DNA from: Daphnia carinata
Taxonomy: Eukaryota
Length of the DNA: 64,000 bases
Assembly: GCF_022539665.2 (NCBI RefSeq)
Contig: NC_081332.1
Span: forward strand, 6,882,001 to 6,946,000
Reading direction: 5' to 3'
In this document: positions 3,701 through 55,030 of the stretch, piece after piece
Numbering within the stretch: position 1 is the stretch's first letter
How the letters are laid out: every line of letters starts with the position of its first letter
The notes under the pieces: model-generated
Told to the model about the DNA's origin: nothing
What the model saw: the letters and a program-made list of their open reading frames with translations, nothing else
The model's database searches: none
Made by a program: the position numbers and the translations under genes

Positions 3701-6700
3701 ATGAAAGGTGACTACATTTTGGTAACGGGACTGCTGATTGCTGCGCTCGCCAATCTGCCGGAAATCCAATCTCAAGGTAACACCTTATGTGTTTTCTTAA
3801 ATATACCTACACGATAACATATCCCATTTATAAATTTCTCGTTTGAACGCGTGTGAAGCAGGAAAAGTGCTTTTTTCCTCTGAGTTTTAGTTTCAGACTT
3901 TCAAGGGGTTAATTTTGAGAATTTAGATAGGCAAATTTATCAAAGAAACCCCTTCAAAGCATCTCCTTGAATTCACTGTGAAAAATTATGAGTAAAAAGT
4001 TGTTAAAAAATTCAAAAAAGAAAGGCAAAATTTTAATGACCTAGTTGTATAAAGTTTAAATGTCATACTTTTTTACTCAAAGTGATATATATGGCCAATG
4101 ATTTTCAGAATGCGCATTTTATGGAGAAAACATAAAGGAAAACCAAACTAATGTGAACATCACCGAAACTATACCAAAAGACACAGTCATCTTAAGTGTA
4201 ACAACATCTGCGGGATGTAATATCTTCTCTTATATAATGTCTCACGTTGGCAGAAAATGTTTGTATTAAACAAATTAATCCAATTTTTAGACTTGAACTG
4301 CTCGGATCTCTCTTCGAGTTCGTTGGAGTTTTCGAAATATATAGGATACAGACACACTCCGACTGCGACTGCAAACAAAACGCTGGAATTGTTTATGGCT
4401 CAAGCGATTGGTGACGACCTTGACAACGGCGACTTAAATATTGCGGTAAGATAGTAAGGAATTTCTTTTTAGACACGGTTTTAGCAAGGTTTTGCAAGAA
4501 AAAAAAAGAACACTGTCGCAGCGCTTCCGACCCCCAGTCTGTTGCATGGCCCTGTCAAAAACAGCGTAAGCTTCGCCCCATTTCCGGGTTGAAGCTCTGC
4601 CGGTAAAAAACTGTGTTGTCTAGTCCTGGACCATCGCTTCGTGATTGTTACAGTAATTTTGTAAGCATCTAAGTCCGAGAAATTTGCCATCCAAAATTAG
4701 TTGTTTGTTATAACTTACAGACTTTAAAATATCAATTCCATCTGAGGACTTCCTTGCGCTATATTTTATTTCACATATAAGCATTTTATTAATATTTACC
4801 ATGTATTTTTTTTGTTCCTCGATCTTTGTGACAAAGTATGTTTTGTCGTTTCTCCCAGTTTTTAGTCCTGTTTGAATGACATAATTCTTCAAAAGTCGGT
4901 TCTGCTACTTATTTGACAACGAGTATAGTAATCGTTTTCCATTTTCTGCCATTTATTCGCAGGAGCAAAAATATGCATTGCTGATAGGCCAATGCAAGCT
5001 CTACTGCCAACAAACCACCACCAGATTATCCGTACGTCAAAATTAATTTCATTTACCGTCTTGAAAGGTGATAACACTCATGTTTGACACTTCGTAAATA
5101 ATTTAGGTTGCCGTGACTATTGAACCCGAAAATACCCAGACACCGATATTCAGCCAGAATTCGGCCCATTTGACTTTGGACGAAAACTATCCCATCGGAT
5201 TAGACTTTAGCGATCTATTGATCGTTAATGAGCAGCGGTTAAAAGTCTCTGATAAGGACCTCCCTCTCGAAGAACTCACCTTTGATGTTAGTGATTCACG
5301 ATTCAAGGCATTCCCGCCGACATTTCGATACTACAATGATTCCAAAAATCATTTACGTGTCGAGTACGAACCACGCATTGCTGTTAATCAGCCGTTGAAC
5401 GCCGAAGATAGTCCTATCATCTTTAATTTAATCGCCCAAGTATATGGTCTATTAACGATAACTTAGTTTTGTCGGACAATTAATAAGCTCGTGTGCTTTC
5501 CCGCTTCTTTGCCGTGTCCCGTTCTAAAGAATAACCAAACTGAAAGTCTCTTCCCGATTACAATCGACATATCTCCGAACGATATGCGCGACCCAGAGTT
5601 TGTATGGCCATACTACACTTCTACAATTTCAAATTCTCAAGTAAACATTTTTCTTCCTTCTCCATCCAATGAAATATTTGACAAGTCTTTTACGTTGCCT
5701 TTTTTATTCTTTATGTTATTGTGTTGTTTATTGTTAGTTCACAGGATTGCTGACAATCAAGCAGGGAAATATTCTCGCATTCGACGGTGACAGAAAAATC
5801 AATCAGACGATCCGTTATGAAATTACCGACAAAGGTACGACTTCCATTCAAATCCCACAACTGATGTTTCAATATTTACTGTATATTACTTAAGATGTCG
5901 AATCAATTGTCATCTAGGTGGTCTCGAAGTACGTATAAGGAACCAACAGCCAGGTAAAGGTGTTCCAATAGAAATAGAACTAACGCTGTCTGTGGAAGGC
6001 TCGGCAACCGACAAAATGCGTTACGTCGTTATTAAGGTACATTGGTATTCACGCATTAAAATCCTGTCTGCGATGCACGTTCACAGCTTGTAACGCCATT
6101 CAATTACCTCAGGCGACACAAGTAGATGACGTAAATCGATACGAAACCGTCGTTCTCGCCGTAGAGCTCCCGCAAACCGTAGTGACGACGCCAGTTCCAA
6201 CAACCCAGCCAACTTGTCCTCCTTGCCCGACCTCCAGCACAGCCACCGTGCCAACGACGACCACGGCAATACCATGTACTACTCCAACCCCACCGACTTG
6301 TGCGCCCTGTTCAACGGTGACGACAATCTCAACTACGTGCCCGACGTTCGATCCCACTACAGAATGTCCGACAATCAGCACAACAGACTGTTCCGCTTCT
6401 TCGACAGAGGCTACCCAGACTACCCTGTATACAAGCACGGCCTCATCTACGTATCCTAGCAGTTCTCCAGTTACGTCAACTACAACGGAAGGTAGAGCTA
6501 CCCCTTATCCTTTTCACGAGACTTCCCTCTGTCTGCTTGCGTTCGAACACCGTTTTTAGCTTTTGTCGACTCAATGCGTATGATCGAAAACCCATTGGGT
6601 TTCTCCCTTTTCTGTATGATTGCTCAGCAGGAACGACAAGTTGCAGTTGCCCTACGTGTCCCGATGAGACCGTAACGGCCTGTCCAACAACACAATGCCC

Positions 6701-9700
6701 AACGCATCCGACAGAATGCCCAACATGTCCGACAGCAACTACCTTAGATTCATCTTCAGCTTCTACAGAAAATCCTTTGTCGACGGGTAAGCTCATAGAG
6801 TTCGGGCATTTATGAGCAATGCTTGTTTTGGGAATGCCAAAATCTTTGAGCAAGATTGTCCAGATTAGGTATTATGTTAATTAAGGTCATGAGCAGATCT
6901 TCGAGGTCCCAAAGGCATTTCAGATAAAAAAAAACACGAAAACAAATAAGGAAAAAAGAGGACCTGTGCAACGATTTACAACAGCGAGATACATGGGTCG
7001 TTGCATGTACTGTTTTAGCAACACACGTCAGCTCCGGCTTCTTATCCGACACATTGACTCGTGGCCTTAAAAACTTGCCAAACATACCCCTAACTAGGTG
7101 GTGACGCAATCACTACAACTATGACATCACCTAGAAAGCGATATTAACTTTTCCTTTTTTTTTTTAAATCTATAATCTCCTCTCTTTTTCCTCCATTAGT
7201 AACTTCAAACCCAACGACTTACTCAGAACTGACGACTGAAAGTTCTTCGACATGCGACTGTTCCACAACCCCGTCGACAGGTATAGCCCTCAGCTACTTT
7301 CTACGTTTAAAAAGCTTGACAACATACGTTTTACCAAACGATGACGCAATGACTGTAACTAGGTGTGACTTTGCATAGCAAACGGCGGTTTTTTATTTCT
7401 GTGTTTGATGCCCTTTCTTTTTCTTCCGTTGGTAGTTTCGCCTTCATCCCCAGTGACTTGCCCCGAATCAACGACTGCCAGTACTTCGACATGCGACTGT
7501 TCCACCACCCCGTCAACAAGTACAATCCTTGGACGCTATCTGTATTTTAATGCCATTAGATATGCCACAACATACGTTTTATATGATGACGCAATGCCAC
7601 AATTATGCGTAACGTCGTCAAAACAGCTATGGCGCGAAATATTTTAAATTCTTTTTTTCTTTTTCGTTCTCTTTTTCTTCCAACTTCAACCTCATACCCA
7701 ATAGGTTGCCCAGAAGCGACACCTACCATTACTTTACCCTGCGAATGTCCGACAGGTATAGGCCTCAGCTGTTGTCTATGTTTAACTTCTTTTTTTTATT
7801 TGTGTCCTACAACGATAGCTATTCATTTCCCCACTGAAACGGATGCTGAACGCACTTTTGTTGTTTTCTCAGCAGTTACGTGCCCAACAACCTCTACGCC
7901 GACCCCAGGAAGTCCTACGGTGCATTTCGACAAACAGCAATACGCGTCCGAATTGGTGGAAAACTCGCCCGCGCAAACTTTGGTTGTCAGTTTGAATGCC
8001 GAGAGCAGCTCGATGGACGAACAACCGGCATACAGCTTCGCGGAAAGTAAAGGAACATTAGGCCAGGCCTTGACGTTCAATGATTACAGTATACTTAAAT
8101 GATTGAGTGTTTTTTTTGCGTCTATGAAAGGTTACGACGCCACGTATTTCAGTGTCGATTCCAAAACGGGAGTTGTCACCACCGCACGATCTCTACCAAT
8201 TGGCGATTATACTTTGGAGGCCATTGCCGAAATTCGTAGTGGTGCCAAAGATTATACTCGGGTAAGAATTTGCCTCCAAGTGAAGAGAAAAAAACAAACG
8301 AAACAAACTAAACAACATATTTATTTAAAGATCGTCGTCTCATCGGTCATGGGAACCTTGTGCAACGGAACCCAGTTCAGCTCACCTCTGTACGAATTTC
8401 CTGTTGCTGAGCGAACAACCGGAATCGTTGGTCAAGTAGAACTGCGATCGACCGAGGACACCGTGTACGATTTGACTATCACATCATGCAACCCGCCGTC
8501 CATGATCGGTAACCTTCAAATGCCCTAAATACCCCCCGACCCTGCTCAGAAACATCCCAGTTTGACTTTTTAAGCGTTTTAGGTGACTTTGACGTGAAGC
8601 CAAATGGAACACTGGTCGTACTTAGGCCATTCGGTTGGACAGCCACGCTTCTGAAAATTACGATCACAATCACAGCCACAGGCCAACGCAATGTGAGACT
8701 ATCGCCGATTTCGACAATAGTCAATCTCGATGTTTTGGATATCAACGAAGCACCCGAATTCGTTGGCTATGGTACTTCTGTGGTGGTTGGCTACCCAGAG
8801 CGCACCTACTTTGATCCTTCAGTTCAAATGCCACTCTACACAGTTAAGGTAAACCCCCACAATTTTTAATTTTATTTCTCTTTTTTTTTTTTTTTTTTAA
8901 ACTGCCCTACTTAACTTGCGTCACAACATTTTTCAGGCATTCGATCCCGACAGCCAAGAAAACGCTAGTCTGACTTATCATTTGGCCAACGAATTCGAAT
9001 ATTTCGATATCGATGTGCTGACTGGGTCATTGTTTGTCAGAGGTCTCGACAGCTTGGATTCGACTTCTAGCCGCACGGTTCAAGTCCTCGCCAGAGATAA
9101 GCACGGCTTGCAGGACAGCCTAAGCATAACTGTACGGTTATCGATCAAAATGCCGCTATCACCGTTCGGACATTTATTGACTGTCTTGTATTTCAATTTT
9201 GATGCCGATGCTTCTATTTTCAGGTGAAATCTTTGGGTGAAGATTTCATCGCATTCATGAAAGCTAAAAGCGACACCGACGTCTTGACGGCAGACACGGT
9301 CGCTAGCGATTTGAGCCGCATTTTAGGCTATCAGACGGTCGTTTTGCGCATTGAAAAGGGTCCGGATTCCGGCGCTAGTGTCCGACAACTACCTAATGGT
9401 TACGCCTACAGCATAACTTTTTACGCTGTAAACCACACGGCATTCATCGCGAGGGAAGAAATTGTTAAGTGAGTTTGATCAGTTCCATTCGTGATGGGGA
9501 TAAAGATCATCAGATTTTGATTGTAAATCTAAAAGGAAATTGGATCAAGCCAATACTAATGGCTTGAGTTGGACCATCGAAGGAAGTTTAGCCGCACCAC
9601 TAGAATATGAAGTTGACACTCTTGTTGACAACTTAACTGCGGAAATGCAAGGTTACGAAATCGCCACTATTGTCTTGTCAACATTATTTGGAGTGACACT

Positions 9701-22319: not shown

Positions 22320-24589
22320 TTACATTATCGAATGCCAACGTTCCACCGAAACTCCGGGTCGGTGTGCCATGTCATGCCAGTGATCAATCCCAGTTGTAAC
22401 AGCTGTACTGTTTGCCCAGGTAGAAAAGAAATGACGATGACCCAAGGTGATCCGTCCCAATGTCCTCTTTGTTCCTAAAATAAAAAGGTTTAATAAATAA
22501 CTCGAAAATCCATTACGTTGTTCATTTTTGGACGAAGAAACGTTTGCGAACGACTTGAGTGATATAGAAAGAGGTTTACCTATTGTGGATTTGGTGACAA
22601 GGACGAGCTGGCAGGAAGCTTCGTGAAGCACTTTCGACTGAAGGGCGAAAACGAACTTCTCTCGTAGCGCGGCCGTGGCCTCATCCCGCCGGATGCCATT
22701 AGTCCTTCGCGTTGCCATTAAATATCCGCGTTCGTACAACAACACCTTAATCGTAACTAGACAAAAAAAAAGTGGTAAGTTTTAGAAGGTTTCAAGGGTT
22801 TCTCATCAATGTGCTTGTTACAGCGAACTTGGAACTCTTCCACAATTCTTCGTAGAATTTGAAAGAAACCTTTGTCTCTCACCTTTCTCTTTATCTTGGT
22901 TGTTTGGAATGAACATTGCTGGACGAATTTGCAAAAGTTCCAATATAATCCGCCCGTGGTTAATCAGTTTTGCTTCATCCCACCAAACTCGATACAAAAG
23001 TGCAATTTGCATTTCGGCCTTGGCCAATGATTCCGCATTCTATAACGAAACATTGTTGTTCAAAATAAATAAATAAACAAATAAAACGTTATTCAAAGAA
23101 GCAGTTAGTCCCAATCCATGCGAAGATATTTAACGTTGCAGATTTCGATTGGGTGCGGTGAAACGCCAAATCACAGCTAAATGATTCAATGAATTGTTTC
23201 ACGATAATAATACGAATAGGATCGTGCTAATAAGACGAATTGTTTCAGGCACAACTTGCAGACCATTGAATTAATGTAGAACAAGCTATTGCTCAAACTA
23301 TCAGTTTGTTTGCAGTTGCAGAAACGTGTACACAGATGCAGCTAGCCACCTGTTCAATTACGAGGTTTACCGAAAGCAACGCAGCTTTCGTCAAGCGAAT
23401 GCACTTGAAACTTTGTCTGTTGCGAACGTTCGTATGCGCATATGCCATTATAGCAATAGATGAATCACTCGAAAATGAGACTACTGACCACCTTACCACA
23501 ATGTCTGCGTGAGGTGAAATGGCTGGTATATTCTCCAGTAAACACCACCTCACTTGACGCCGGTGATTCACTCCGTCGAAGTCGGCCATGCTGAAAATTG
23601 CCTGACCTAGCGTTACTGAGCGTGAAACACACCTTTCGTAGCAGGATGATTCTGGACGGTCACGAACCATCAGCAAAATTTCAGTTTTATTCAAAAGCAA
23701 ATTGGACATGTCCAGTTCGAATACTTGATTGAAGAGCGGATTGCAGTTGGACTTCAGCGTTTTAGTTATGCATTTGATCTGTCTTTCGGGAAGGATTACA
23801 ATCTGCATAATGAAAAACAATACTATTCAAAAATTTTGTTCTTTTAAAATATTATGTGAAGCAGTTCCGTGAATTTAATAAATCACCTTGACATATGGAT
23901 CAGGAGCAATATTTTTACTCCTTGTCGGCAGATTGAGTGCACCCAAAATCTTGAGGGTTAATAATTGACGCGAAGAATTAAATTGCAAAGAAAAACCAAT
24001 TTTGGCTTGGCTTGTGTGGATGAGCTCATTTGTTTCAAGATCACGCGAGTAGAGTTTCAAGTTTAAATTGGCAGGACCCAATAATTTGCTGTTGACGCGT
24101 TGAGGACAAACGGTGTCGGCAGCCGAAATGCTCTCCGAACAGGTTCTGTTTACTACGTTGTTCAATGGTTGAGATTCGTCCGTAACACTTGATTGAGATT
24201 CAACAGTGGCGGGATTTTTTTGCTGAAAAAAAAAATAAATTAAAGAGAATTGTACATTTTGGTGAAGAGAAAACATTCACTCTAAACAAGTTTCAGTTTG
24301 CGATCTGTGTGGTGGCAGTACTTTACGAGTTGCTGGTAGAACGAATGAGACGATGTCCTCACTGCGGATAACGGGTATTTTAGAGGTAAGTTTAAATTTC
24401 TGTTTGGCTGCGAAGCCGTTTTTTGTCTGCTCATGCTTATATAAGTTCTTCTTTCGCCACCAGAAGAAGAGGCAACACACAGTAGCGGACATGATGATGA
24501 CGAAGAATGAACAGACAGCTACGAATAGAGCTAGCCCGTGAGTTGACAGTCTGGAGTCCACTAAGCGATTGAAACTCAAATTACCAAAC
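22320..24589 (-). CDS. Synaptotagmin-like protein (N-terminal TM plus tandem C2 domains), probably Ca2+-independent; start codon unresolved
   Basis: TM segment LALFVAVCSFFVIIMSATVCCLFFWW followed by a basic stretch. C2A: IGFSLQFNSSRQLLTLKILGALNLP...DPYVK...NPLFNQVF. C2B C-terminus GRITLG...HWHDMAHRPGVSVERWHSIM*. Spliced exons. Confidence 0.82.
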
Positions 24590-40920: not shown

Positions 40921-43900
40921 ATAATGATATTTCAACACCTCCTCTCATTATGAGCATCTATTGTGGAATTTCCACAATGTTCAACAATTCACAGAATTTA
41001 CTGAAACTAGAATAAGCTAGCGCTTTGGTAAAGATATCTGCTAATTGCTCATTGCTATTAATATAGGAGATGTTGATTTTCTTTTGATCTTCTGCATCCC
41101 TGATGAAGAAGAATCTCACGTCCATGTGTTTTGTCCGTTGATGGAATAGGGGATTTTTTATTAGCGTGATTGCTCCTTGATTGTCGCATCTAAGTTCTGT
41201 GGTTCTTTCTGGCCACCCCAGCTCCATTAACAGTCGTTGCAGCCATATCGCTTCTTTTGTAGCTTCTGCCGCTGCCATGAATTCCGCTTCAGTTGTGGAT
41301 AAAGCTACACACGTTTGACGTCGACTGAACCATGAACCTCCTAGGAAAATAAATATCGAGCCCGAGGTTGACCGACGAGTCTCTAAGTCACCTGCATAGT
41401 CGGAATCACAGTATCCGACTAGTAGACTACTTCCCCACGAAATCGGATTCCAAAGTTCAGTTTTCTTGAGATACGCTAGAATTCTTTTGGCTGCTTTCCA
41501 GTGTTCTTTTCCAGGCTTTTGGACGTATTGGGCAACTTGTCCAAGAGCTTGTGCGATGTCAGGGCGTGTGATATGTGAGATGTGTGTAAGGCATCCAACT
41601 AACTCTCTGTAGGATATATTGGACATTGATGCTGTTTCCTCTTCGTTTTGTGGACACATTCCGGGTGCAAGTTTGCAACAGGGGTCCTCTGGAATTGTGA
41701 GAGGATTACAGTTGAGCATATTAAATTTTTTAAGTATTTGCTTGATGTACTCCAAGAGCTTGATTGAGATAAATGAATTGTTCGGTTAGTGCGATCTCTG
41801 GTTATATCTATTCCAACAAACCGGTTTGCTGGCATTGATCTTATCTCAAATTCTTTTCCAAGGTGATCCAGTATGTCTGTGAGAACTTTGGGAATATTGC
41901 TAAGTATGATTCCGTCGTCTCGTCCGTCGTAACAAATGAAGACCGTAAACTCTTGGCTTTTTTTACTTGGTTGGTTGTGGCGAAAATAGACCAATGCATC
42001 CGCTTTGCTTCTGGTGAATCCGAATAATAACAGGAATTCATTAAATTTTTTGCTCCAAGCTCGTGAGGCTTGTTTGAGTCCGTACAGGCTTTTCTTTAAA
42101 CGGCATACGTCCTTTTCTCTTCCTGGGATAACAAATCCTTCAGGTTGGATCATGTAAATTTCTTCATCTAAGTCACCATTTAAGAACGCCGTTTTGATAT
42201 CTAACTGCATCATAGCCTCGGTTCTGCTTGTGGAGTTTCGCTTTCGTTGTTTTCTGCTACTTGAATATCATTTGTTTCAGCTGTATTGGAAGGGGGCATC
42301 AAAAGAAAGATTTCGTTGTTCCTAGACTGTCCCATTATTGAAGAAGGAGATTTTTCATTCAGGTTGCTGCAGATTATTTGTTCATCTACCTTGAAATTAT
42401 TGCTTGTGATGACTTTTCTGGTGGCAAGGATAAGGATGCGGGCAGCATTTTGTGTATGGCTTTGTCCTAGAAAAACTCCTTCTTGGCTTTTTGCATCAAG
42501 TTTCGTGCTGGTTGGAATACGTACAAAGGTTTTGGAGCCGAAAATCCGTAAGTTAGAAAGGTTTGGTTTCTTTTTAGTCCATGCTTAATGAGGTGTCATT
42601 TTTCTAGTAAGAGATAGAACGCGATTGTGAATGTAGGTAGAATAAGATGTTGCTGCTGCCCATAGTTCTGGTTGAAGTCCACTTGAGATTAACATGCTTG
42701 GGGCTGAGTTTTGTATTGTACGGTTGGTCCTTTCTGAAACACCATTTTGAGATTGGTTGTACGGGGCGCTGCTTTCGTGTCTAATCCCTTTTTCCGCAAG
42801 ATATTTTCTGAATTCGTTTCCATTGCATCCATCGCATTCGCTGCGCATTCGCCAACTTGGTTTTAAGGGGCGACCAAATCTAGAACGACGACGTTCTCCA
42901 ACAGCTTCTATTCCATTATTGGCAGCTGCGCCTATTGAAAAAAGGCTTGTTCCTAGTTCTGGGACGTATAGTGCGTCTTTAATAGTTGAATGCGTTATTA
43001 TTTGGTCCAATTCTATGGTTACGTTGATGCCTCCTTTGCCCAGTACGTTTAGTTTTGTATCGCCAATGCCTTGTGAAAGAGAGCAAGAAAGAATAAAAAA
43101 ACATCCACTTAGACATCGTGTGTTTAGTATGTCGTTTACCTGACACAGACCATTTTCCTTCTTCAATTGGTGTAATAGTTGAGAAAACACTTTTTTGATC
43201 TGACATGTGTCTGGTTGCTCCCGAATCGGCAAAGAAGGCAAAGATACTCCTGGGATCAAATGAAGATGGTGATGCCATGCCCCATTCTTCATTGCTTTTC
43301 ACTTTTTCTGCTCTCTTTTTCTTAACTCTTTCTTTTCATGGCCCCGGATCTTGCAGTAGTTGCATCTTGGTCGAGTGTCATTATAATTCGGTAGAGACTG
43401 GTGATTATGTCTTCCATATTTGTTGATGAATCCTCCTCTTATTCCAAAATGTCCTCCTCGGTAATTACCACGACCATAACCTCCTCTGCTTCCATTAAGG
43501 GCTCGAATTCTTCGTCATTACTTGTTTCTTGTTTTGAGTAAGAATCCATCACGTTTTCTTCATTCAATAAACGTTGAAGTAGGTTTTCTAGTGTGCGCTC
43601 GTGTACCGGAACACTTGACCAGACTAATCTCACTACTCTAAATCTCTCAGGTAAGGTAGCTAGAGCTTTGCTAACGACTTGAATTTCTTCGATGACTAGG
43701 TTTCGTTACCTCAGTCTATTTACACATGTTGATAGTTTTTGTAGATGTGTTCGCATGTCTTCACCTGTTGGAAGAGGTTTATATGAAGTGCAAGATGTGT
43801 ATCAATAACTTTAAATTGTAAATACCTTGTGTGAAGTTGAAATCATAGAAATTTTGCCAAATGAGATGTATCTGTTCCACAGTGTTGATCTCATATTGAT

Positions 43901-44789
43901 TATTCAACTTTTTCCACATATCGGCTGCAGTCAAACCAGGAGTGTAAAAGTTTTTTTTTCATTTCTCTTGTTAACGTACTGAATATGCAGTTTCGGGCTG
44001 TAATGTCTTTCTTGATCCAACTATTGATAACTGCTTCGTTTGTGATTTGGTCACCATCATAGGTCTAATAACACACTATAAACAAGAAATTATGTGTAGT
44101 TACTGTGATTTCATTTGCCATTTTGAGTTAGCAATGTAAATTTTGAACTGTGTAATTGACAGTGACAGTTGAGAATCGTAAAACTGAAAAGGTGTAAATA
44201 AACCAGAATTGTACTTCTAAACTGTGTGATTGTCAGTGACAGTTGAAATGTAAGACATTGTATTCAAAATTGTGTTACTCGCAGAAATAGTTTCAATTGC
44301 GAAGGTAAAAAAAAGGTAAATACCTCTTCTGGTCGCACTTCATATCCTGACACAATCATTGAAAGATCCAACAGTTTCAACACCAGATCCAATTAAAAAT
44401 GCCATTCACGGTAATTGGATTCGTCGAACTTGGGAACATTTTGTACTGCTTTGATTGAAATGTCACCGTTTTCTGCCATATTAATTTTGGGAAGATTCTG
44501 TAATTCTGGGCCCATAACCTGTTGGAATAAGTGATAGCTTATTCAGTACAGTTTATATAAGTTACACTAGCTCTCTATTTGATATCCAAATGGAAAGAAT
44601 AATCAGTTCATAATATTCAAACTTATATTAGGACAGAGTACCTTTACATACGGAGTTTGAAAGAAAAGAGAGCGCCGTAAGGCGACACCTACCCATGAAG
44701 AGAACAACCGAGGGTTAGGGATAAACAATACAAGATGATTCAGAAACCTAAATAGGTTTCCGTAACATGCTCATAATGATATTTCAACA
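40921..44789 (-). mobile_element. Ty1/copia LTR retrotransposon, decayed, with intron-interrupted gag-pol
   Basis: 5' LTR 44789-44520 (TGTTG...CAACA). Copia-type PBS GGTTATGGGCCCAG at 44519-44506. gag ATG at 44479 (KFDESNYREW; CNYCKIRGH knuckle). Protease FADSGAT, integrase APYNQSQNGVSERTNRT, RT QLDIKTAFLNG...KSLYGLKQA, RNase H YCDSDYAGD...RTKHMDVR, stop at 40958. PPT GAGAGGAGG, then only 17 bp of the 3' LTR (40937-40921). Contains stops, frameshifts and internal deletions. Confidence 0.93.
44520..44789 (-). repeat. 5' LTR of the copia element (270 bp)
   Basis: TGTTG...CAACA termini and directly abuts the PBS. First 17 nt are identical to the sequence after the PPT at 40937. Confidence 0.85.
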
Positions 44790-47413
44790 CTTTGCTCTTT
44801 TTTAGGTTTCTCGCTTCCGCTTCTGCTTTTTGTTCGACTTCTTCTTCTATTCGTTGTTTCAATTCGTCATCGGGACCGTCATATCGGAAGTTGATGGTGT
44901 TAAATCTTCTTCCAAATACGTCGTACAGTGTTTTGATCACGGTTTCTAAGGGATTAAACATGAAGTCAGAGATGACTACTCTTTCAGAATCAGAAAAGGC
45001 TTATTTCTCCTTCGGACTTCAAAATGACACCTTAATAGGCGAGTGTTTCTTTTGAAGTTGTTCGTCGTGACATCACGGTAAGCAGTAGCAGCAACGGTTA
45101 GGTTAACATTACTGTATCTCTTTGCACTATGCGAACAGATCTTCCTACGGATATAATTCCTGTTCTAGCCCCTTGTGCCTCTTCTGCTTTTTTTGCGTCT
45201 TTGATGTTACATTCGGACCTTATGTGTCCGTTTTTGTAACATCCGGCGGAGTGTTACTTTCGTGTGACGTATTGTGCGAGGATCTAATGCATTCTTTTGG
45301 CAGTCTTTCAGGTTCCGCAGAATTTGTGATTAAGCATCTTTCTGGCTGCTCATTCTAGTTACTTTTTTAGCTGTTGATAGTAAATTGATTTTTGGTGTAC
45401 GGTGCGATATTCTTCATGTCAATCAAAGGTTTCATTCGTTCGATGTGTGCAATGTTTGTTTTTGGTGATTTTTCCAAACGAAGCTCGGTAATTACTTTGC
45501 GTCGTCTGTCTAATCACTATATAAGGTCCAAGCCAACGATGTAGAAATGTCTCCAGGTTGGTCACCTTCATAATAGGTTTGTAGACCAGTACTTCTTCAT
45601 TTGGTAGGTACGCCATTGCTTCCCTTTTTTTTCGTCGTAGATGTCCTTTTGTCTCAGCTGCACTACGGTAGCTCGTGCTTGCTACAAGAGTTGAATTTCC
45701 TATTCCAACGAATCGCAATCTTAAGGTTGTATCCGGTTTGGGTTTGCGTTTGAAGCCACATCTATTGGGGGTATGGCTTCTGATTGGAACACGAGATAAA
45801 GTTGGGTTCTTCCCGTGGTCACGTGCCGTGTAGTATTGTATGCGAATGTTACAAAAGGTATCGATTACGATTCCCAGTCTCGATGATCTGCACTTACATA
45901 CGCCGTAATCATACATTGACAAAATATTTGCCAATGTATGATTACGGCGTTCCACCAATCCGTTGGCTTTTTATGCCTGTATCATTTTTCGTGTCACTCT
46001 TGCAGTAAAGCGGCGGCCTTGATCACTTGTTAACTGGCGTGGCGACCCATGTTTTAATAAGGAACTTTTACTAAGAAGTCAACTACTTCGTTAGCGTCAG
46101 CGGTAGGAAGTGCCTTCGTATCTGCCCATCTTATCACGTAATCAACTGCCACGACGATGAGTTTGTTCTTCTTTTTGATAATGGGAACGGGCCCGGGATA
46201 TCCATTCCTAATGTTTCAAATGGTGGTCGGTTCTTTTCCCTTCCATTTATCCGGCCGATTTGCGGTACACCGGTTTGCGAAATTAGCACTCCCTGCAATT
46301 GCGAACGAACTCACTGATATCTTCGGCCATCGCCCACCAAGAGGAACGATCTTGTACTTTCGCTAGCGTACCTGTCAATCCTGTCGTGATATCATGATGG
46401 CAAGAACGCATAACTTCTTTTTTGAACGACTGAGGCACACACAGTTTTAAAAGTCGTCCATAGTCAACTAATTTCTCGTAGAGCAACAGACCATATTTGA
46501 TTCGATACTCTCCTGGGACTTTTTGATCGCGACAAACACTTCATCCCATTCTTCTTGCTGGGCGCGTTGCCTTTCTTCTTTGGTATCATGGTAGATGCTC
46601 AAGGCGGCCACTATGGAGTTTTGAGCCTCATCTGTCCCTGTTACGACGTTTACTGGATAACGTGATAATGCGCCCGCATCCGTATGCAGTCTCCCGTTAC
46701 GACGTACAATTCTTAGTAAAAATTATTGTTACTGTAGATTCCAGCGTGTCAGACGTCCTGCTAAGTCTTCTTTGCTTAACAGCCAACAAAGCGCGTGATG
46801 GTCAGTCACCATCATGGTCTCCATTCCCCATGCGTAGCTTCTAAATTTCTTCACCGATCATCCAGACCAACGGCAGGCATTCCTTTTCCGTGATGGAATA
46901 ATTGTTTTCACTTAAGAGGTGACTCCCGTAGGCGAGGGGACTTTAGACGTTGTCGATCCGTTATAACAGCACCGCTCCAAGACCGTAGTCACACGCATCA
47001 TGATGTGTTTCGAAGGGCTTGGAGAAATCCGTATACGCTAACGTAGCAGCTTTAATTAGTGCTTTTCTCAACGATTTTATACAACATCATCTTCTCTCAA
47101 CGATTTTTTTTAGCTTTCTTCCTTGGGTCCTTCCCACACGAAGCATCCACCCTTTTTGAATCAGTTAGAGGTTTAGCAACGTTCGTGAATTGTGCAATGA
47201 GCCGTCTATAGTAGGAGCATAGTCCTATGAAACTTCAAACACATTTCAGTTGATCGGCTGGCTTGTTCAATGAGCACACTTACGGGAATTTACACATTTT
47301 TCCGCTAATTACTTGTCCAAAAGTTTTCATTCCTCGGGTTGCAAATTAACATTTCAAGAGTTTCATTTTTAATCCCGCTTCGTGCAATGCACTTCGCACT
47401 TTTCAAGACAGCT
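44790..47413 (-). mobile_element. Decayed Ty3/gypsy pol fragment (RT C-terminus, RNase H, integrase)
   Basis: Minus-strand fragments EAGLKMKLLKC, HHDACDYGLGAVL, VPQSFKKEVMRSCHHD...EFVRNCREC, VERRNHTL and LHRWLGPY. Many stops and frameshifts. Confidence 0.85.
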
Positions 47414-50400
47414 TGTCCACCTTAAGCCTGATCACACTAGATCCATCATCCGCTGGAAAGCCCCTTGGGCGGATGCCAATCCAAGCGGCATTACAAAAAA
47501 CTAGTAAAGGCCATCTGGTATCACGAATGCTGCTTTTGCCTTGTGCTCTTTGTGCATTGGGACTTGCCAGTACCCGCTATCTAGATCTGTTGCTTCAACC
47601 CAGTCTCGTTGCTCTTTCCCGTCTCAATCAAGCGTTCGGTTTTTTTTTTGTCCGTCTCAATAAAGAAGTCCTTTGTTTTATATCATCGTCATTTTCACTT
47701 CATCCCTCATCACTCATCCATCCCACTCTGTCTCTGTTACCAACTCTCGCACGGAGTCAGTAACAAATGGTGTCCGGGATTTGACGAACACTTGCATTTC
47801 CCGTCATCGTTAGTAAAACCCTCGCTTGATTTGTGAATTGTCGGGTATTCTCCCTGTAAACCTTTGGCAGACGTCTACGCCAGCCTGAAGGCACCCACCT
47901 GTCCACCACGTGTTTGCCATCTGACTAGAAGATCGGTGTATCTACGTGAATTATCGACATCCGTTAACGTGTGACTCTATCAGCCTAAAATAACGTTTCT
48001 ACGCCATGAGTGAAGCCGTACCCAAAGCCGAAAATATGGAAATTGGCCACATTTGGGGGCCCACCCCCAATGGTAGACGCATCGAAACCTGAACGGCAGA
48101 AGAGTGAACGGACCTTACTTCCCGAAAACGTAAATCTCAAGAAGAAACGTGGGAAGAGAAAGGCGGCCCACACGAAATTAACGACACAACTCAGAAAGGC
48201 TGTGGAAGACCACAAGATGGGAGCCATCAGATTGAAGAAATTGCAAGTAGCAGCATGGCGTGACGAATTGATTCGTATTTATGACGAAGTCAAAGTAATT
48301 CACAACCAATATACAGAAAGTATATACGACCTCACTGAGCAGCAACGTCAAGCATGTGACAAGTGGGAAGCAGACTTCGAAACAGACCACGTTGAAGTTA
48401 TCAAATTCACAAGTCGCTACGCCACTTCCTCAAATCAGTCCGTCAACTCGATCGGGGCATTAGCTTCGGACATCACATGTAGTACCACGTTATCTGGCTG
48501 CTGAAGCTGGAAGTGAAGTTGGAAACAGCAAGGGCTCAGATGGAGGCAAACACAACTTCCATCACAGAAACCCTCAACAAGGCGTTAAGGAGCATGAGCG
48601 AACAACTGAGTAAGCTCATTGATAGTTCGGCGGCGACAACACGCTAGTCAGAGAAGCACACCACACATTGGACGGGTTAGACCAGAAAATTGATGCAGTT
48701 AAGGTGGAATTAAATGCCAAAATCGAAGACCTTCGAACGGAAGTAGACGTCATGAAAGTTCAACCACGAACGATTCAAGATCAACGACCTCCCGGGCGAT
48801 CACCAGTCTTACCAACTCGTCAAGATGTTTCTACCCTGTCACCCCTGCGAACGATGAAAGATGCAGTCCGATATCGCAGAAGATTGGTCGCCGCCGATGC
48901 ATCTCTACGAGACCCCGATGTCGTCCAGCTGCGACCCTACGGATCACGGCGAAGATGACCGTTCTGAACGTTCGAACACCCACAGTCAAGCCAATCGACC
49001 TCATAGCAGCTGCTGCAGTCGCCTGCAACCTCCCAACTTCAAGATCCAGCCATTTGACGGTAACCCGAAGAACTACGCGCGATTCAAGGCCAAATTCCAG
49101 GCCTTGTATGAAGAGTATGAAGATTCTCCGGTACTTCTTTTTATGTAGGAGGAGCTGCTAGCCGAAGATGTACGAAACAAAATCGGTGAATGTCTTACCG
49201 ATGGAACGACGTTTAGACGCGATGTACGGTCGTACGGAAATTATGGATCAGACGTACCTCGACGACCTATTACAGGTCCCGCCATTGAAGAGCCTAGACG
49301 CTGCCCGCCTCAAGACCTTCGCAAACCGTCTTCATGGTGCAGTAGCCACGCTCTCCAAGTCGAAGTATGTCCATAAGCTATACAGCCGTACAACGTTGGT
49401 GGCCCTTGAAGCAAAATTGACGCCCTACCTCAAGGATAAGTGGAACGAGAAACGTAAAAAGACAGGAGTAGAACTGAATGTTCTAGACTTAGAAGACTGG
49501 GTAACGTTGAAATCCATGAGCAAGCAACATGGAAAAAATGTATTCGAGTCTTTACCCACGCCGACGTCCAAAGGTGTAAAGTTCGACGAAAGGAAGCTCA
49601 TCAAGAGACCCAGCTTCCCACACTTGTCGACCATTGGACACGTATCGACGATGGAAGGTTCGAAAGTAGCGGCGTCAACATCTTCAGCAACCATGCCTCC
49701 AAGGAGTCGATCAGCATCGGGGAAGATGCAAGCCGAGAAGACGGAACGGTGGAAATGCTTTGTATGCAACGGCAGGAGCCATCATCTCTCAACCTGCACC
49801 GTCTTCATGTCTCTCACGCCCACGAAAAGGGCTGAGAAAGTATTCAAGTCCGGAAGATGTCTTTATGTCTTACGGGAAAACACGAACGCAAGGAGTGTCC
49901 CAGGGACGTCAGCTGTACTATCGCTGATTGTACTGGAACCCGTCAACACACCTTGCTTCATGGATCCGAATTCACCCCATTGAGGAGGCTAGCGGATCCA
50001 ACTGCTCCATCAGCGCCCCCTTCGACACCATTCCTTGGGACCTTAACCCATTTGGAAACAGTAAAACGACGTGTACGTTTCGAGATCGTACCGGTTCGTG
50101 TTGGAGCTGGCAAAACATGGGTCGACACTTTCGGTTTCCTGGATACCGGAAGCAACACCACGCTGATTCGGAGCGACTTAGCCAAGAAGTTGGGACTCGT
50201 TGGGCCATCTAAACGCATCAACGTTGTCTCGTATGACGGAGCCACGTCTAACGTTACGGCTTCCGTAGTAAACTTCGCCCTAACGTCTCGCGATGGTAAT
50301 AGCCAGTTTGAAGCCAAACACGCTTACGCCGTCGACAATTTGAAGGTGACGCCGAATTCGCCGATCGACCCTCGACAGTTCCAGTCATGGAAACACCTAC

Positions 50401-53400
50401 GTGGTATTGACGTCCCGACCGTTCAACAAGAGGACGTGACCGTGCTGATAGGAATCGACGTCGCAGAGGCCCATGATCATGTAGCTTGCATCAAGCCACC
50501 GGCTTGAACGACTGGGCCCATCACCTTCAAGACGCCGTTTGGCTGGTGTTTGGGTGGACAAACAAGCCCGCCACAAGACGGACGCCCGTTCATCGCTCAT
50601 CTGGCCACCGTGGAACGTCCCGAAGACCTAAACGAGCTGGTGAAGAAGTTCTGGCAACTTGAGGCCAGTAAAGTAGAAATAGAACCACCCGTTCTATCTG
50701 AGGAAGACTTACGGGGAAATCGTATCCTAGAATCTTCCGTAAAACGTATTGGTAACCAGTATCAAGTCGGCTTAATGTGGAAGGCCGACGAAGTAAATCT
50801 CCCAAACAATCGGGCATCTGCATTGAAGAGGCTCTACGCCCTCGAACGACGTTTTCATCGAGACGCGGAGTTTGCCCAACGGTACGATGCAGTGGGCAAG
50901 GAGTACATCGGCTTAAAACACGCCCGACTCTTAACGACCCAAGAAGCCCAGACGGAGACAAATAAAACGTGGTATCTGCCACTCCACGGGGTCGTGAGCC
51001 CTTCCAGCTCATCGACCAAAGTTCGTGTCGTATTCGATGGGGCTGCTGAGTTTGGTGGCACATCGATAAACAAAACCTGCTCCGGAGCCCTAACTTACTT
51101 GTTATCCTGCTTGGTGTGCTCATCCGCTTCCGCCGTAACCTCGTACCAGTCGGAGCGGACATTGAGAAAATGTTCCACCAAGTGAAAGTCCCGGAAGAAG
51201 ACCAGGCCGCCTGGCAGTATTTCAGCTGCGTTAACGTACCAGATGACGGTGCAGGTATATGGAGCCATCTCCTCCCCAACGAGCTGCATCTTCGCCCTCA
51301 ACAGGACGGCTGACGACTACCGCAGCCAGTTTCCAGACGTAGCCGATAGCGTTCGACGTAATTTCTACGTCGAAAATTATCTCGACTCCTTCGACTCCGA
51401 AGACATGGTCATCAAACGGTCCCGCCAAATGAAATCCCTTCTTCAGCTAGGGGGATTCAACTTGACCAAGTGGACGTCGTCATCCAGAACGGTGATAGCA
51501 GTGCTACGAGAATTCGGCCTCGCATCACCAACTCTAGATCTGGACTTGGAGAAACTTCCGGTCGAGAGAACGCTTGGAGTAATGTGGGACAGCGAACGAG
51601 ATGACGTTCAAGATACGGAAGCCACCGAACAACGTGACCCTCACGAAACGAGCCTTTCTAAGCATCATCTCTAGCGTCTATGATCCGTTGGGACTGGTTG
51701 CCACAGTTATTTTCGTGATGAAGTCTCTACTCTAAGACATATGGACTAACGAAGAGCGGATCGGATGGGACGACGTCATACCGGAAACGTTGAGGCAACG
51801 CATCCATTGCTGGTACGACCATCTGGAAAATTTGGTGTCGCTGTCACTGCCGAGATGCTTCCATTCCAAACGAGGACGTTGGACTCAACAGCACCTCCAC
51901 GTCTTCACGGATGCAAGCTTCAAAGGGTACGGAGCAGTAGCGTACTTCCGCACTCTATTCGAGGACCAGTCCGTCAAGGTGTCATTCGTCATGTCGAAAA
52001 CGCACGTCACGCCGGTGAAAGGTCTCACGATTTCACGTTTGGAGCTACAAGCTGCCGTAGAAGGTCTCAACATCGCCCTCACGATTTGTCGTGAGCTGGG
52101 GATCGAATTACGGCAAGTGACCTTCCACACAGACTCGCAAACGGTGCTGCAGTGGATCCATTCAAAGACCTGCCGATTTGAAGTATTCGTTAACAACCGC
52201 ATCGGAAAAATACTCCGAAACACGGGTCGTCGACAATGGCGTCACGTTGCGGGAGACTTAAATCCAGCGGATCTCTGCAGCAGGGGTATCGACCCAAAGG
52301 ACGTCGAATTGGTCTACTTCCATCGAGGACCTTCGTTCCTGAACCTAGACCCCTCAGAGTGGTACACTTGGGAAGAGATTGCGGAGCCAGAAGAACGAGG
52401 CGTAAATGTAATCCGCGTCTTGGCAGTCAAAACGGAAGACGAGAATCATGTCATCGACCGGTGCGTCGCACGTTTCTCCAGTCTGTTGAGACTTCAACGA
52501 GTGCTGGCCTGGAGTAAAAGATTTGCCAACAACGCTACAGCAAAACTACGTGATGAAAAACCAATTGTCGGAGAGGACGAAATGCATCGTACGCGCGCAA
52601 GAATTGGCCTTTGCTGATGAAGTCTACGCCCTTCGCAAGAATCTGGAATTACCACTCAGATCAAAACTTCGCACCTTCCAGCTCTTCTTGGATGAAGCTG
52701 GACAGATGCGAATTGGCGGACGTATACTTCAAGCGCCGATCGACTATGCAGCCAAACACCCCATAATTCTACCGGCATCTCAACCTTAAAGGAAAAGGAT
52801 AATTTGGGATCACCGCGTTAGAAACATGCACGTCAAACACAGAGAGAAGACAGAGAGATTGCTAACTGACCTCCGTTCTCGCTATTGGATACTCTCTGGA
52901 CGTAAAGCGGTAAAATCCGTACTCAACAACTGCTGGCCTTGCAAGCGCACGTCGGCGAAGCTCAGCCCGCCGTTGATGGCTTCCCTTCCAGTACATCGTT
53001 TAATGCCTCATCTACTCGCGTTCACGTACACAGGGATCGATTACTTTGGTCCCTTGACCGTAAGAATTGGTGAACGGGGAAGAAGACAGGAAAAACGGTG
53101 GATCAGCCTATTCACGTGATTCACCACACGAGCAGTTCACCTGGAAGTAGCCAACGGGCTCTGTATGGAGGAGTTTTTACTTTGCTTCTCCCGCTTTGTT
53201 AGCCTACGTGGAAAACCCAAGGTCGTTTACAGCGACAATGGGACAAACTTTGTCGCCGCCGAGCAAGAGTTACGACAAGCCCTAGAAGAACTTGTTGCTA
53301 AACACGAAGAACTTCAGAGGTTAATGGCTTGTCAACAGATTCAGTGGCACTTCTCTCTACCCCATGGGCCCCACTTCGGTGGTGTTTGGGAAAGGATTGT

Positions 53401-55030
53401 ACAATCCTGTAAGCGGGCAACGAAAACCAGCATAGGCAATTGCCTAGTCACGGATCAAGTACTACGAAATACGAAATATAATTGCTGAAGTGGCAGCTTT
53501 ATTAAACGCCCGTCCGTTAACTCATCTGAGTATGGATCCAGAAGACCCGGATCCATTAACGCCAAATCACTTTCTAACAGTGGAGCTCGGCCGTAATTGC
53601 CCCTACAATTGGCCGACGTGGAAGACATGAACGTAACCAACAAGCAGTTTTTGCAAAGTCAAGCCATCCTCCAACATTTTTGGAATAGATGGCTACGTGA
53701 ATACGTTCCACACCTAACAAAAAGGAGAAAATGGCAAGAAAACAGACCTAACGTTACCGTGGGAGATTTAGTGCTTGCAGTTGAACCAAATATTTTACGT
53801 GGTCAGTGGCCGATGGGCAAAGTGTTGGAAGTTATTCCCAGTGCAACGGATAATGTTGTTTGAGTTGTAAAAGTGAAGCTTACCAATCATCCAAAACCAT
53901 GTATTCGGCCGGTGGCCAAATTGTGTATCATGGTTGCGGCAAAAGAACAACAAGTTTACGCAAAAGAAGAAAAAAAGGAATCTTCTACAGCGTAAATGTT
54001 CAACCTCAATATTGTAAAAATGTAAATAGTGTTTGTAATGGAGCTACGATCAGTAGCTCCCCTGGTAAAAGTAAAATTGTAATGTAAAGACACAAATGTA
54101 TACAACGTAGGAGAATCGCAACTCAACTCTGGTGGAGAAGTCACCAAGCTTAGCGCCACCTATATTCAAGTTCAAATATAGGGCAAATGGCAAAAGTCAA
54201 GTCGCTTACTGTTTAGTAACACAGAAAATTTGGAAACTGTTTAGCCTTACCTGCTAGCAGACAGCATTCAGTCGACCTAACTTCGTCTAAGTGAAACCTG
54301 TGAACTCCTACGTGAAACGTGTAACATGGCCGAGAATCCATTGCCATCCGCGGCATCAGTAAAAGAAAAACTCAAAGTAAGCCGGGAGAGAAAGGAGGAG
54401 TGTGCGGTCAACCTTAAAGACACAGTGGACAACTTATTACGTGCAAAAAAGGAACTAGTGGACAAAGTGTATTCTTGCCAGCGGGCCATCTTAGAGATCG
54501 ACAAAGAAATCGCCAAGTACTCCGAGGATCTAGACAATGTACGCGTCCACTTCCGAACTGAGCGAGAGATCTCGATGAGCAAATTCATCGGATCTCTTTT
54601 ACGCAAAGTTCGGGAGTTGGAACCCGACGCTCCGCCAGCCACGCCGGTCGCCACTCCAACACGTCCTACGTTCGTGGTCCCTCTCCACACGCCGATCATC
54701 CTGTGCTTTTTAAAGTCCCACGTGTTGGGACCGACCCCCTGCTGGAATAAGACCACGGAGTGTGAGGAGTTCATGCTCCTCACAAACGAGGATAAATTGG
54801 AGCTCCTTTTTGCCCAGCGACGGTGTTTTGGTTGCTTTGTCGCAACCGCCGTCGCGGGGCACACGAAGACCGCAGACTGTCCCCATCCCCGACGTTGCAC
54901 GTTGTGTAACACACAAGATCATCATCAGATCTTGTGTGCGCCAAAAAGGGCGTACAACAACCTGCCCGCGCACTAGGGATGACCCATCATTTCATCCAGT
55001 CCTCAAGTACACAGCTGCGGGGAGAAGACT
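47414..55030 (+). mobile_element. BEL/Pao LTR retrotransposon, near full-length internal region, decayed; 3' LTR not found
   Basis: Candidate 5' LTR 47414-47765 (TGT...AACA, AATAAA at ~47658), then TGG-starting PBS-like sequence at 47768. Gag (FDGNPKNYARF; CFVCNGRSHHLSTC...HTLLH), protease FLDTGSNTT, RT (WYLPLHGV, KVRVVFDGA, NFYVENY), Pao RNase H (LHVFTDAS...ISRLELQAA, NPADLCSRG), integrase (GIDYFGP, SDNGTNF, PHFGGVWER). Purine tract GCGGGGAGAA at ~55020. Confidence 0.9.
54326..54976 (+). CDS. Extra 216-aa ORF downstream of BEL pol: coiled coil plus BEL-Gag-like Cys/His zinc-binding cluster
   Basis: ATG-initiated uninterrupted ORF. C-terminus CEEFMLL...RRCFGCF...GHTKTADCPHPRRCTLCNTQDHHQILC parallels the element's own Gag C-terminus (CTVFMSL...RCL.CL.GKHERKEC...CTIADC...HTLLH). 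Confidence 0.65.
   Translation: MAENPLPSAASVKEKLKVSRERKEECAVNLKDTVDNLLRAKKELVDKVYSCQRAILEIDKEIAKYSEDLDNVRVHFRTEREISMSKFIGSLLRKVRELEPDAPPATPVATPTRPTFVVPLHTPIILCFLKSHVLGPTPCWNKTTECEEFMLLTNEDKLELLFAQRRCFGCFVATAVAGHTKTADCPHPRRCTLCNTQDHHQILCAPKRAYNNLPAH

Follow-up and report, generated by a model that had tools for sequence, protein, structure and literature searches.

The window analysed here is a stretch of 64,000 nucleotides (nt) of Daphnia carinata DNA (RefSeq assembly GCF_022539665.2, contig NC_081332.1, positions 6,882,001 to 6,946,000 of the forward strand), and coordinates within it are counted from its first letter. On its minus strand, between 40,921 and 44,789, lies a copy of a Ty1/copia retrotransposon whose gag and protease coding sequence is interrupted by three intron-like segments. 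The order on this strand is long terminal repeat (LTR), primer binding site (PBS), gag, protease (PR), integrase (IN), reverse transcriptase (RT), RNase H, polypurine tract (PPT) and 17 nt of a 3' LTR. The element belongs to Ty1/copia by its domain order and its termini. Full-length copia polyproteins align to it collinearly in tblastn searches, in the order Gag-PR-IN-RT-RNase H, and the Pfam domains Retrotran_gag_2, Pol_BBD, SH3_retrovirus and RVT_2 follow one another along the copy. Its parts are as follows.

44520..44789, minus strand: 5' LTR, 270 nt, with TG...CA ends
44506..44519, minus strand: PBS GGTTATGGGCCCAG, common to most relatives
44324..44479, minus strand: gag exon 1, the Gag N-terminus with a KFDxxNxxEW motif; one stop in the window copy, at 44395
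44065..44323, minus strand: intron 1, 259 nt, phase 0, after P-E-E; all three frames hold stops
44220..44244, minus strand: intron-1 repeat unit, copy 1, 25 nt with 6-nt inverted ends; a candidate cis signal
44146..44170, minus strand: intron-1 repeat unit, copy 2
43826..44064, minus strand: gag exon 2, the Retrotran_gag_2 region; one frameshift in the window copy, near 43934
43765..43825, minus strand: intron 2, 61 nt, phase 1; its naturally joined form is the protein P0141
43140..43764, minus strand: exon 3, with the remaining Gag, the zinc knuckle and the N-terminal half of the protease with its DSG motif
43070..43139, minus strand: intron 3, within the protease, 70 nt, phase 1; same site in the related loci L001, L003, L004 and L009
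40958..43069, minus strand: exon 4, with the C-terminal half of the protease, integrase, an SH3-like domain, RT and RNase H
40938..40946, minus strand: PPT
40921..40937, minus strand: 3' LTR stub, 17 nt, identical to the start of the 5' LTR; the remainder is missing

The window copy is a dead insertion. Besides the damage listed above, exon 3 holds a stop at 43708 and frameshifts near 43502 and 43299, and exon 4 holds one stop and four frameshifts and has lost the start of RT. Most of the integrase is deleted from about 42900, and the site of a fourth intron known from the family has gone with it. In total, the copy contains three stops, seven frameshifts and large deletions in integrase and RT. 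A transposition-competent copy needs two LTRs and an unbroken Gag-Pol frame, and this locus has neither. The target site duplication (TSD) is unreadable because the 3' LTR remnant is only 17 nt long. The earlier note on this DNA had regarded the element as a mobile copy with LTR, PBS and PPT; these parts are indeed present, but mobility is a property of the relatives and not of this copy. The PBS GGTTATGGGCCCAG is presumably a match to the internal tRNA-iMet (initiator methionine tRNA) primer of the Drosophila copia type. By eye, a decayed gypsy-like integrase and coding-like sequence flank the copy at 44790-46500 and 40500-40920 on the minus strand, and the copia copy seems to be nested in a decayed gypsy-like element.

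The three GT-AG segments of 259, 61 and 70 nt were found exactly where that note had placed them on the minus strand. Each has a length of 3n+1 and a GC content of 0.30-0.34, compared with 0.36-0.41 in the adjoining exons. A spliced profile aligner, which used a score profile built from 36 related proteins and was not supplied with the segment coordinates, returned exactly introns 1-3 for the window element and nothing further. The spliced protein-to-genome alignment that had been suggested as a check thus recovered the same three introns blindly. Consistent with this result, intron 3 separates Pfam Pol_BBD positions 2-38 from positions 33-80, and the two parts are read in different frames. 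Removal of the segments had been stated to restore the frame, and the junctions are locally in register, but the copy as a whole remains broken by the stops, frameshifts and deletions described above. The inserts exceed chance because GT-AG inserts occupy the same sites in many diverged relatives, while the outgroup is without them.

Introns 2 and 3 had also been described as host-sized, which holds: the window contains a synaptotagmin-9-like host gene (22323-24434, minus strand) with five called introns of 65, 84, 105, 126 and 457 nt, some of whose boundaries move with the guide protein, and the 61- and 70-nt introns are host-like beside this range of 65-457 nt. A stretch of this gene is 94% identical over 110 residues to a D. 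carinata synaptotagmin-9-like RefSeq protein. The idea that weak splice donors might leave a pool of unspliced RNA was considered as well; G at position +5 occurs in 17% of 56 element introns and in two of the five host introns, a host sample too small to decide the matter.

For comparison with related elements, 78 metagenome loci (L001 and so on) were taken from the best 80 of 192 confirmed stretches. A 60-row tree, from which 19 short or low-scoring loci were omitted, sets 17 outgroup loci apart from a large clade that includes the window copy. The rows of a second tree (37) were chosen by hand, and only support off the path from the root to the window is quoted from it, since re-rooting displaced the values along that path. 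Locus counts include repeats of one family (L006/L007, L008/L023, L015/L016, L024/L025 and L037/L038). The nearest full-length database proteins are 58-65% identical across the RT/RNase H part. Relatives were found in none of the 18 candidate stretches from the viral contigs scanned and in none of the 38 from the prokaryote genomes scanned. Open reading frames (ORFs) from unannotated contigs break where the window copy does: many start just after site 1 or site 2, some end a few residues past site 3, and others read through an unconserved insert, either one of 21-26 residues at site 2 or a comparable insert at site 3. Gene models of Daphnia pulex (P0270, P0283, P0285 and P0302) fall inside the family, and in P0283 and P0285, which are predictions and not transcripts, exon 1 is joined to exon 2.

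The first gag intron is present in 32 of the 34 clade loci that cover the start of gag. It lies at the P-x-E site of the window copy in 28 of the 34, and at a site between VE and G about eight codons upstream in four (L015, L016, L019 and L034); it is absent from L017 and L074. Counted without the window copy, the P-x-E site is filled in 27 other loci. Five further partial loci show just an acceptor-like end ahead of exon 2. Calls of intron 2 fall on or next to a single column in 19 loci, including relatives with as little as ~35% protein identity to the window copy. Intron 3 was called in five loci and intron 4 in three, and these two introns mark the window's own subclade (FastTree support 1.0). 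The 17 outgroup copia loci gave a single gag-protease intron call, which lies in a variable linker, and none at the clade sites. Calls in variable linkers (mostly 3n in length and GC-rich, e.g., columns 287-297 and 750-900) were taken as false positives and were not counted. The expectation that other copies would keep all three introns is therefore borne out for the first, which is near-universal, but introns 2-4 are bound to subclades and are precisely absent in nested lineages. Extra AT-rich short GT-AG inserts were seen in L015, L016 and L019 (profile column 97), in L031 and L078 (column 373), in L037 and L038 (column 228), in L039 (3305-3377) and in L009 (7645-7747). Some of them are common to subclades, which suggests repeated intron gain within the lineage.

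The properties of 56 inserts at the conserved sites indicate that they are very likely spliceosomal introns. All but three of them (53/56) have a length other than 3n or contain a stop. The length classes 3n+1, 3n+2 and 3n are represented by 23, 18 and 15 inserts, respectively, and the class changes between sister families. Inserts other than intron 1 measure 53-97 nt, and nine of the 25 first introns listed are only 50-120 nt long. The splice ends show G at -1 in 85%, A at +3 in 91% and a pyrimidine at -3 in 82%, and the G content of the short introns is 0.11, compared with 0.20 in the adjoining exons. A branch-point-like motif occurs in 37 of the 56, a count for which no null was computed. 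In diverged pairs, the similarity of the inserts hardly exceeds that of shuffled sequences, and their length difference is not a multiple of three in 13 of 22 comparisons. The exons, including the downstream ones, show nonsynonymous divergence (dN) far below synonymous divergence (dS) over 14 pairs of relatives. In exon 1, this is the case in nine of ten comparable pairs, with dN/dS values such as 0.03/1.05 and 0.09/1.22. Purifying selection thus acts on frames that can be joined only by splicing, which is the core argument that splicing takes place. The first intron begins ~55 codons into gag; therefore, the unspliced RNA cannot encode Gag. Read from the first ATG downstream of the PBS, the ORF ends at 47-149 codons on the unspliced RNA of all 18 intron-bearing relatives with a PBS, in agreement with the earlier proposal that a spliced mRNA must be translated, while the same ORF in the intronless L017 runs for 1397 codons.

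The carriers are not relics of the kind found in the window. Besides the window copy, the clade includes 11 full-length loci, ten of which carry intron 1, and nine of these ten are free of stops and frameshifts outside the inserts. Diverged but otherwise intact relatives thus bear inserts at the same codons, an outcome in favour of the earlier note. L039 is a complete insertion with LTRs that are 96.5% identical and a 5-bp TSD (GTTCT). Four other loci (L005, L006, L014 and L026) end in identical overlaps of 126-127 nt, a suggestive indication that these are collapsed LTRs of young or multi-copy families. The carriers belong to many families with 35-71% amino-acid identity to the window copy, and they possess LTR, PBS and PPT. 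In L055, at ~860-1112, a PPT stands directly ahead of a 5' LTR, which may reflect tandem elements sharing an LTR or an assembly collapse.

Single introns are precisely absent from several lineages nested among carriers. L002 is without introns 3 and 4, both of which its sister L003 has; L008 is without intron 2 inside a clade that bears it; L055 is without intron 2, which its sister L039 has; and L017, placed among intron-1 carriers, is without every intron. The ultrafast bootstrap (UFBoot) support for the nesting of L002, L008, L055 and L017 is 100, 95-97, 100 and 92, respectively. In each case the flanking codons abut and nothing is missing. A related case is P0141, a JGI/IMG protein that matches L006 with 100% identity in residues 1-91 and 99.8% in residues 92-1361. 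It is joined exactly across the 64-nt intron 2 of L006, and its start codon is an ATG within intron 1. Since gene calling at IMG involves no splicing, there is a natural molecule that lacks intron 2 but retains at least the end of intron 1. The source of P0141 is a partly spliced RNA, or DNA copied from one. Similarly, the P0331/P0340 family retains introns 1 and 3: its ORF opens within intron 1, runs across a joined site 2 and closes within intron 3.

From these observations, we propose that a copia lineage, likely of Daphnia, carries one to four introns at fixed codons and makes its proteins only from spliced mRNA, while the RNA that is packaged and reverse-transcribed would be one that keeps intron 1. 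We put the probability of this reading, which draws on sequence comparisons, at roughly 0.78. The host spliceosome would very likely splice the inserts, and the spliced mRNA would give Gag and Gag-Pol. The copied RNA is, in all likelihood, unspliced or intron-1-retaining; as such it would make no protein, so the proteins would have to act in trans. Downstream introns come and go, while the first intron stays in 32 of 34 loci. The later introns were probably gained in inserted DNA copies, carried along, and lost when partly spliced RNA was packaged. Intron 1 might owe its persistence to a packaging or export signal that lies within it or overlaps it, with the conserved repeat units as candidates; this step is tentative. 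It seems rather unlikely that retention of the protease introns gives Gag-only products, which could occur in the subclade that bears those introns. The split between a coding and a genomic RNA pool, which the earlier note had inferred, would accordingly apply to the lineage and not to this dead copy, and its principle is already known from BARE and Ogre. A broader view, which we regard as somewhat doubtful, is that this is an old and diverse animal LTR lineage whose genome RNA is fully uncoupled from its mRNA, the non-coding packaged RNA being chosen through a signal in gag intron 1, so that host-type introns accumulate and are passed on, in a layout undescribed in print. On this view, each retrotransposition would be a natural experiment in intron gain and loss.

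The candidate signal was examined in the long first introns. Intron 1 of the window copy contains two copies of the 25-nt unit with inverted 6-nt ends, and that of L009 contains three. L009 is the closest relative of the window copy (dS 1.2-2.5). The two first introns align locally with a score of 49, a value not attained in any of 500 shuffles; introns 2 and 3 of the pair, by contrast, show no similarity beyond that of shuffled sequences. Intron 1 begins ~200 nt past the PBS, in the region that holds the packaging signals in retroviruses. In the long first introns of other families, the hexamer CACATG occurs at 8.4 per kb compared with 0.6 per kb elsewhere in the elements, an enrichment for which five related loci are mostly responsible; the window's intron does not contain the hexamer. 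Tandem repeats on a CACATG/ACATGT palindrome were observed in intron 1 of L005, L006, L007, L008 and L011, and this region of repeats differs by 84 nt between L006 and L007.

Several points weigh against the proposal or parts of it. Concerning the signal, the 25-nt unit is confined to the window copy and L009 among the 78 loci plus the window, other families having other repeats, and folding of the intron-1 region of L009 shows no advantage over shuffled sequences (z +0.8). A required signal is also opposed by the short first introns and by the intronless L017. Both L017 and L074 are without intron 1, and the frame of L017 is unbroken for 1397 codons; therefore, intron 1 is not indispensable. 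P0141 may derive from DNA or from RNA. A weak search of 497 candidates, six of them matches, gave no longer protein that continues from exon 1 into exon 2, so that the case for intron-1 splicing rests on selection and on the two intronless loci. In the exon-1 comparison, the tenth pair (window/L009) has a dN of 1.28, caused by misalignment of the damaged exon 1 of L009. The TSD was read in one locus only. Metagenome contigs may be collapsed copies, and several loci are one family in different assemblies. The aligner demands GT/AG, mildly favours A at +3 and G at -1, and misplaced ~5-7 first-intron boundaries (L015, L016, L021, L038, L039, L048 and L069); several first-intron boundaries were inspected by eye. 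Deep nodes of the tree are weak, and intron 2 is therefore compatible with one or several origins.

Among the alternatives, the one that comes closest concerns the intron-1 signal step only, and we consider it about as tentative as the signal itself. By analogy with BARE, a separate transcript class with another start and no cap could evade splicing and be the sole form suited to packaging or strand transfer, in which case the repeats would be promoter or splicing-regulatory sequences. The TATA1 transcripts of BARE lack a cap, remain unspliced and are the sole class to be packaged (PMC3735527). In the clade, the intronless L017 and the short first introns of 50-80 nt show that a long intron 1 is unneeded. 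However, P0141, L008, L002 and P0331/P0340 have lost downstream introns and kept intron 1, a bias that a wholly unspliced class does not predict. Non-autonomy of the intron-bearing elements, with inserts that are never spliced and proteins supplied by intronless helpers such as L017, is very improbable. An intact intronless L017 does exist inside the clade, but frames that are not translated would decay, and nine of the ten full-length carriers instead contain neither stops nor frameshifts; exon 1, Gag, protease and RT all show dN far below dS even where dS exceeds 1. Moreover, every insert keeps GT..AG, and P0141 is joined exactly at the predicted junction.

We give equally little weight to the idea that a domesticated gag-pol gene acquired the introns after insertion, or that the copies spread by DNA duplication. 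Daphnia is reported to gain introns readily, and the window copy is without an intact LTR pair, both of which would suit this explanation. It is opposed by the many families of carriers at 35-71% identity with LTR, PBS and PPT, by the LTR pair and TSD of L039 and the terminal overlaps of L005, L006, L014 and L026, and by the decayed state of the window copy inside another decayed retroelement. Least probable of all is that the inserts are read through or bypassed in translation by frameshifting or by reinitiation at an ATG close to where intron 1 ends. Three of the 56 inserts and intron 1 of L025 are open 3n frames, and P0141 has an in-frame ATG near the intron-1 end, in one family. Against this, the length classes are mixed and change between sister families, the read-through peptides are unconserved, and exon 1, which encodes the Gag N-terminus in relatives that have no introns, is under selection. 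An accessory ORF of the Rev/CERV type after pol was also considered but is not supported: the clade loci listed show no convincing additional ORF in the stretch from pol to the PPT, and in the window's subclade, pol runs nearly straight into the PPT. A pyrimidine tract ending in AG was observed within ~120 nt after the pol stop in L014, L017, L020, L022, L032, L040 and L069, with no clear extra ORF. This tract may be the acceptor for a long splice of the Drosophila copia type that yields a Gag RNA.

The intron-bearing lineage proposed here shares single features with several known systems. Ogre, a Ty3/gypsy element of legumes, has a non-coding spliceosomal intron that is kept in the genome and that some transcripts lose by splicing, so that the entire polyprotein can be translated (PMC6317226, PMC12786077). 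However, Ogre follows the gypsy domain order and has only one intron, located between PROT and RT, whereas the Daphnia lineage has the copia order and one to four introns, mostly of 50-100 nt, that lie in gag and inside the protease and are gained and lost across the tree. BARE, a copia element of barley, has separate translated and packaged RNA pools (PMC3735527), which are likely in the Daphnia lineage as well. The full ORF of BARE1 is carried by the unspliced RNA, and a stop created by splicing restricts the product to Gag (PMC3735527); the Daphnia lineage would be the reverse, with splicing opening the frame. Arabidopsis EVD and Drosophila copia are likewise copia elements that use the major spliceosome, and a splice site falls in their protease region, but their 'intron' is coding sequence, removed to give a Gag or Gag-PR RNA, and the unspliced ORF spans the element (PMC5580714; bioRxiv 10.1101/2024.02.21.581285). 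A full ORF on the unspliced RNA, as in EVD, BARE1 and Drosophila copia, is not found in the intron-bearing relatives examined, all 18 of which end at 47-149 codons. Introns also survive retrotransposition in Penelope-like elements, where this is called highly unusual and of unknown significance; however, these are non-LTR elements of another RT clade with a GIY-YIG endonuclease, and their introns are mostly in the 5' untranslated region (PMC8557442).

The CoDpu clade (PMC3587641; D. pulex survey, PMC2996953) consists of Daphnia copia elements, as the present lineage likely does, and D. pulex Gag fragments belong to the family described here. The word 'intron' does not occur in the main text of the CoDpu paper PMC3587641 or of the D. 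pulex LTR survey PMC2996953. A 2025 review names Ogre and EVD as the only intron-bearing plant LTR elements, in the part of its text consulted (PMC12786077), and the consulted parts of PMC12810828, PMC12477816 and PMC2911113 contain nothing relevant. No description of introns in Daphnia copia gag was found in the literature, although Repbase, Dfam, subscription journals or supplements may hold one. The principle of separate pools is not new because it has been shown for BARE, and a frame-opening genomic intron is known in Ogre. The new part is the obligatory, multiple and evolving introns of host type inside copia gag and protease.

That an element loses introns when it retrotransposes is the classic evidence that it moves through RNA, and reporter assays are built on this loss (PMC12786077). 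If our proposal is true, a non-coding and intron-laden RNA must pass nuclear retention and nonsense-mediated decay and be packaged over its own mRNA. Three questions would become testable in a laboratory model animal for which RNA data are public, namely the choice of genomic RNA, working without cis-preference, and the rate of precise intron removal by reverse transcription. In practice, ORF-based pipelines would score such intact elements as broken or as host genes (P0283 and P0285 of D. pulex are fragments), and the activity of copia elements in Daphnia may be under-counted.

The window contains several other features. A tandem array of 10-12 diverged units of ~358 nt lies at 31491-35755, and its units include stretches that resemble, by eye, tRNA internal promoter boxes; ARAGORN found no tRNA in the window, the array included. 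A decayed BEL/Pao element with DUF1759, aspartyl protease, Peptidase_A17 and integrase domains occupies 49162-53488 on the plus strand, and diverged partial BEL/Pao pieces lie near 37438-38036 and 30319-30704, with DUF5641 at 37524-38036. At 5100-9227 on the plus strand, there are broken or multi-exon frames with one weak match to a cadherin domain.

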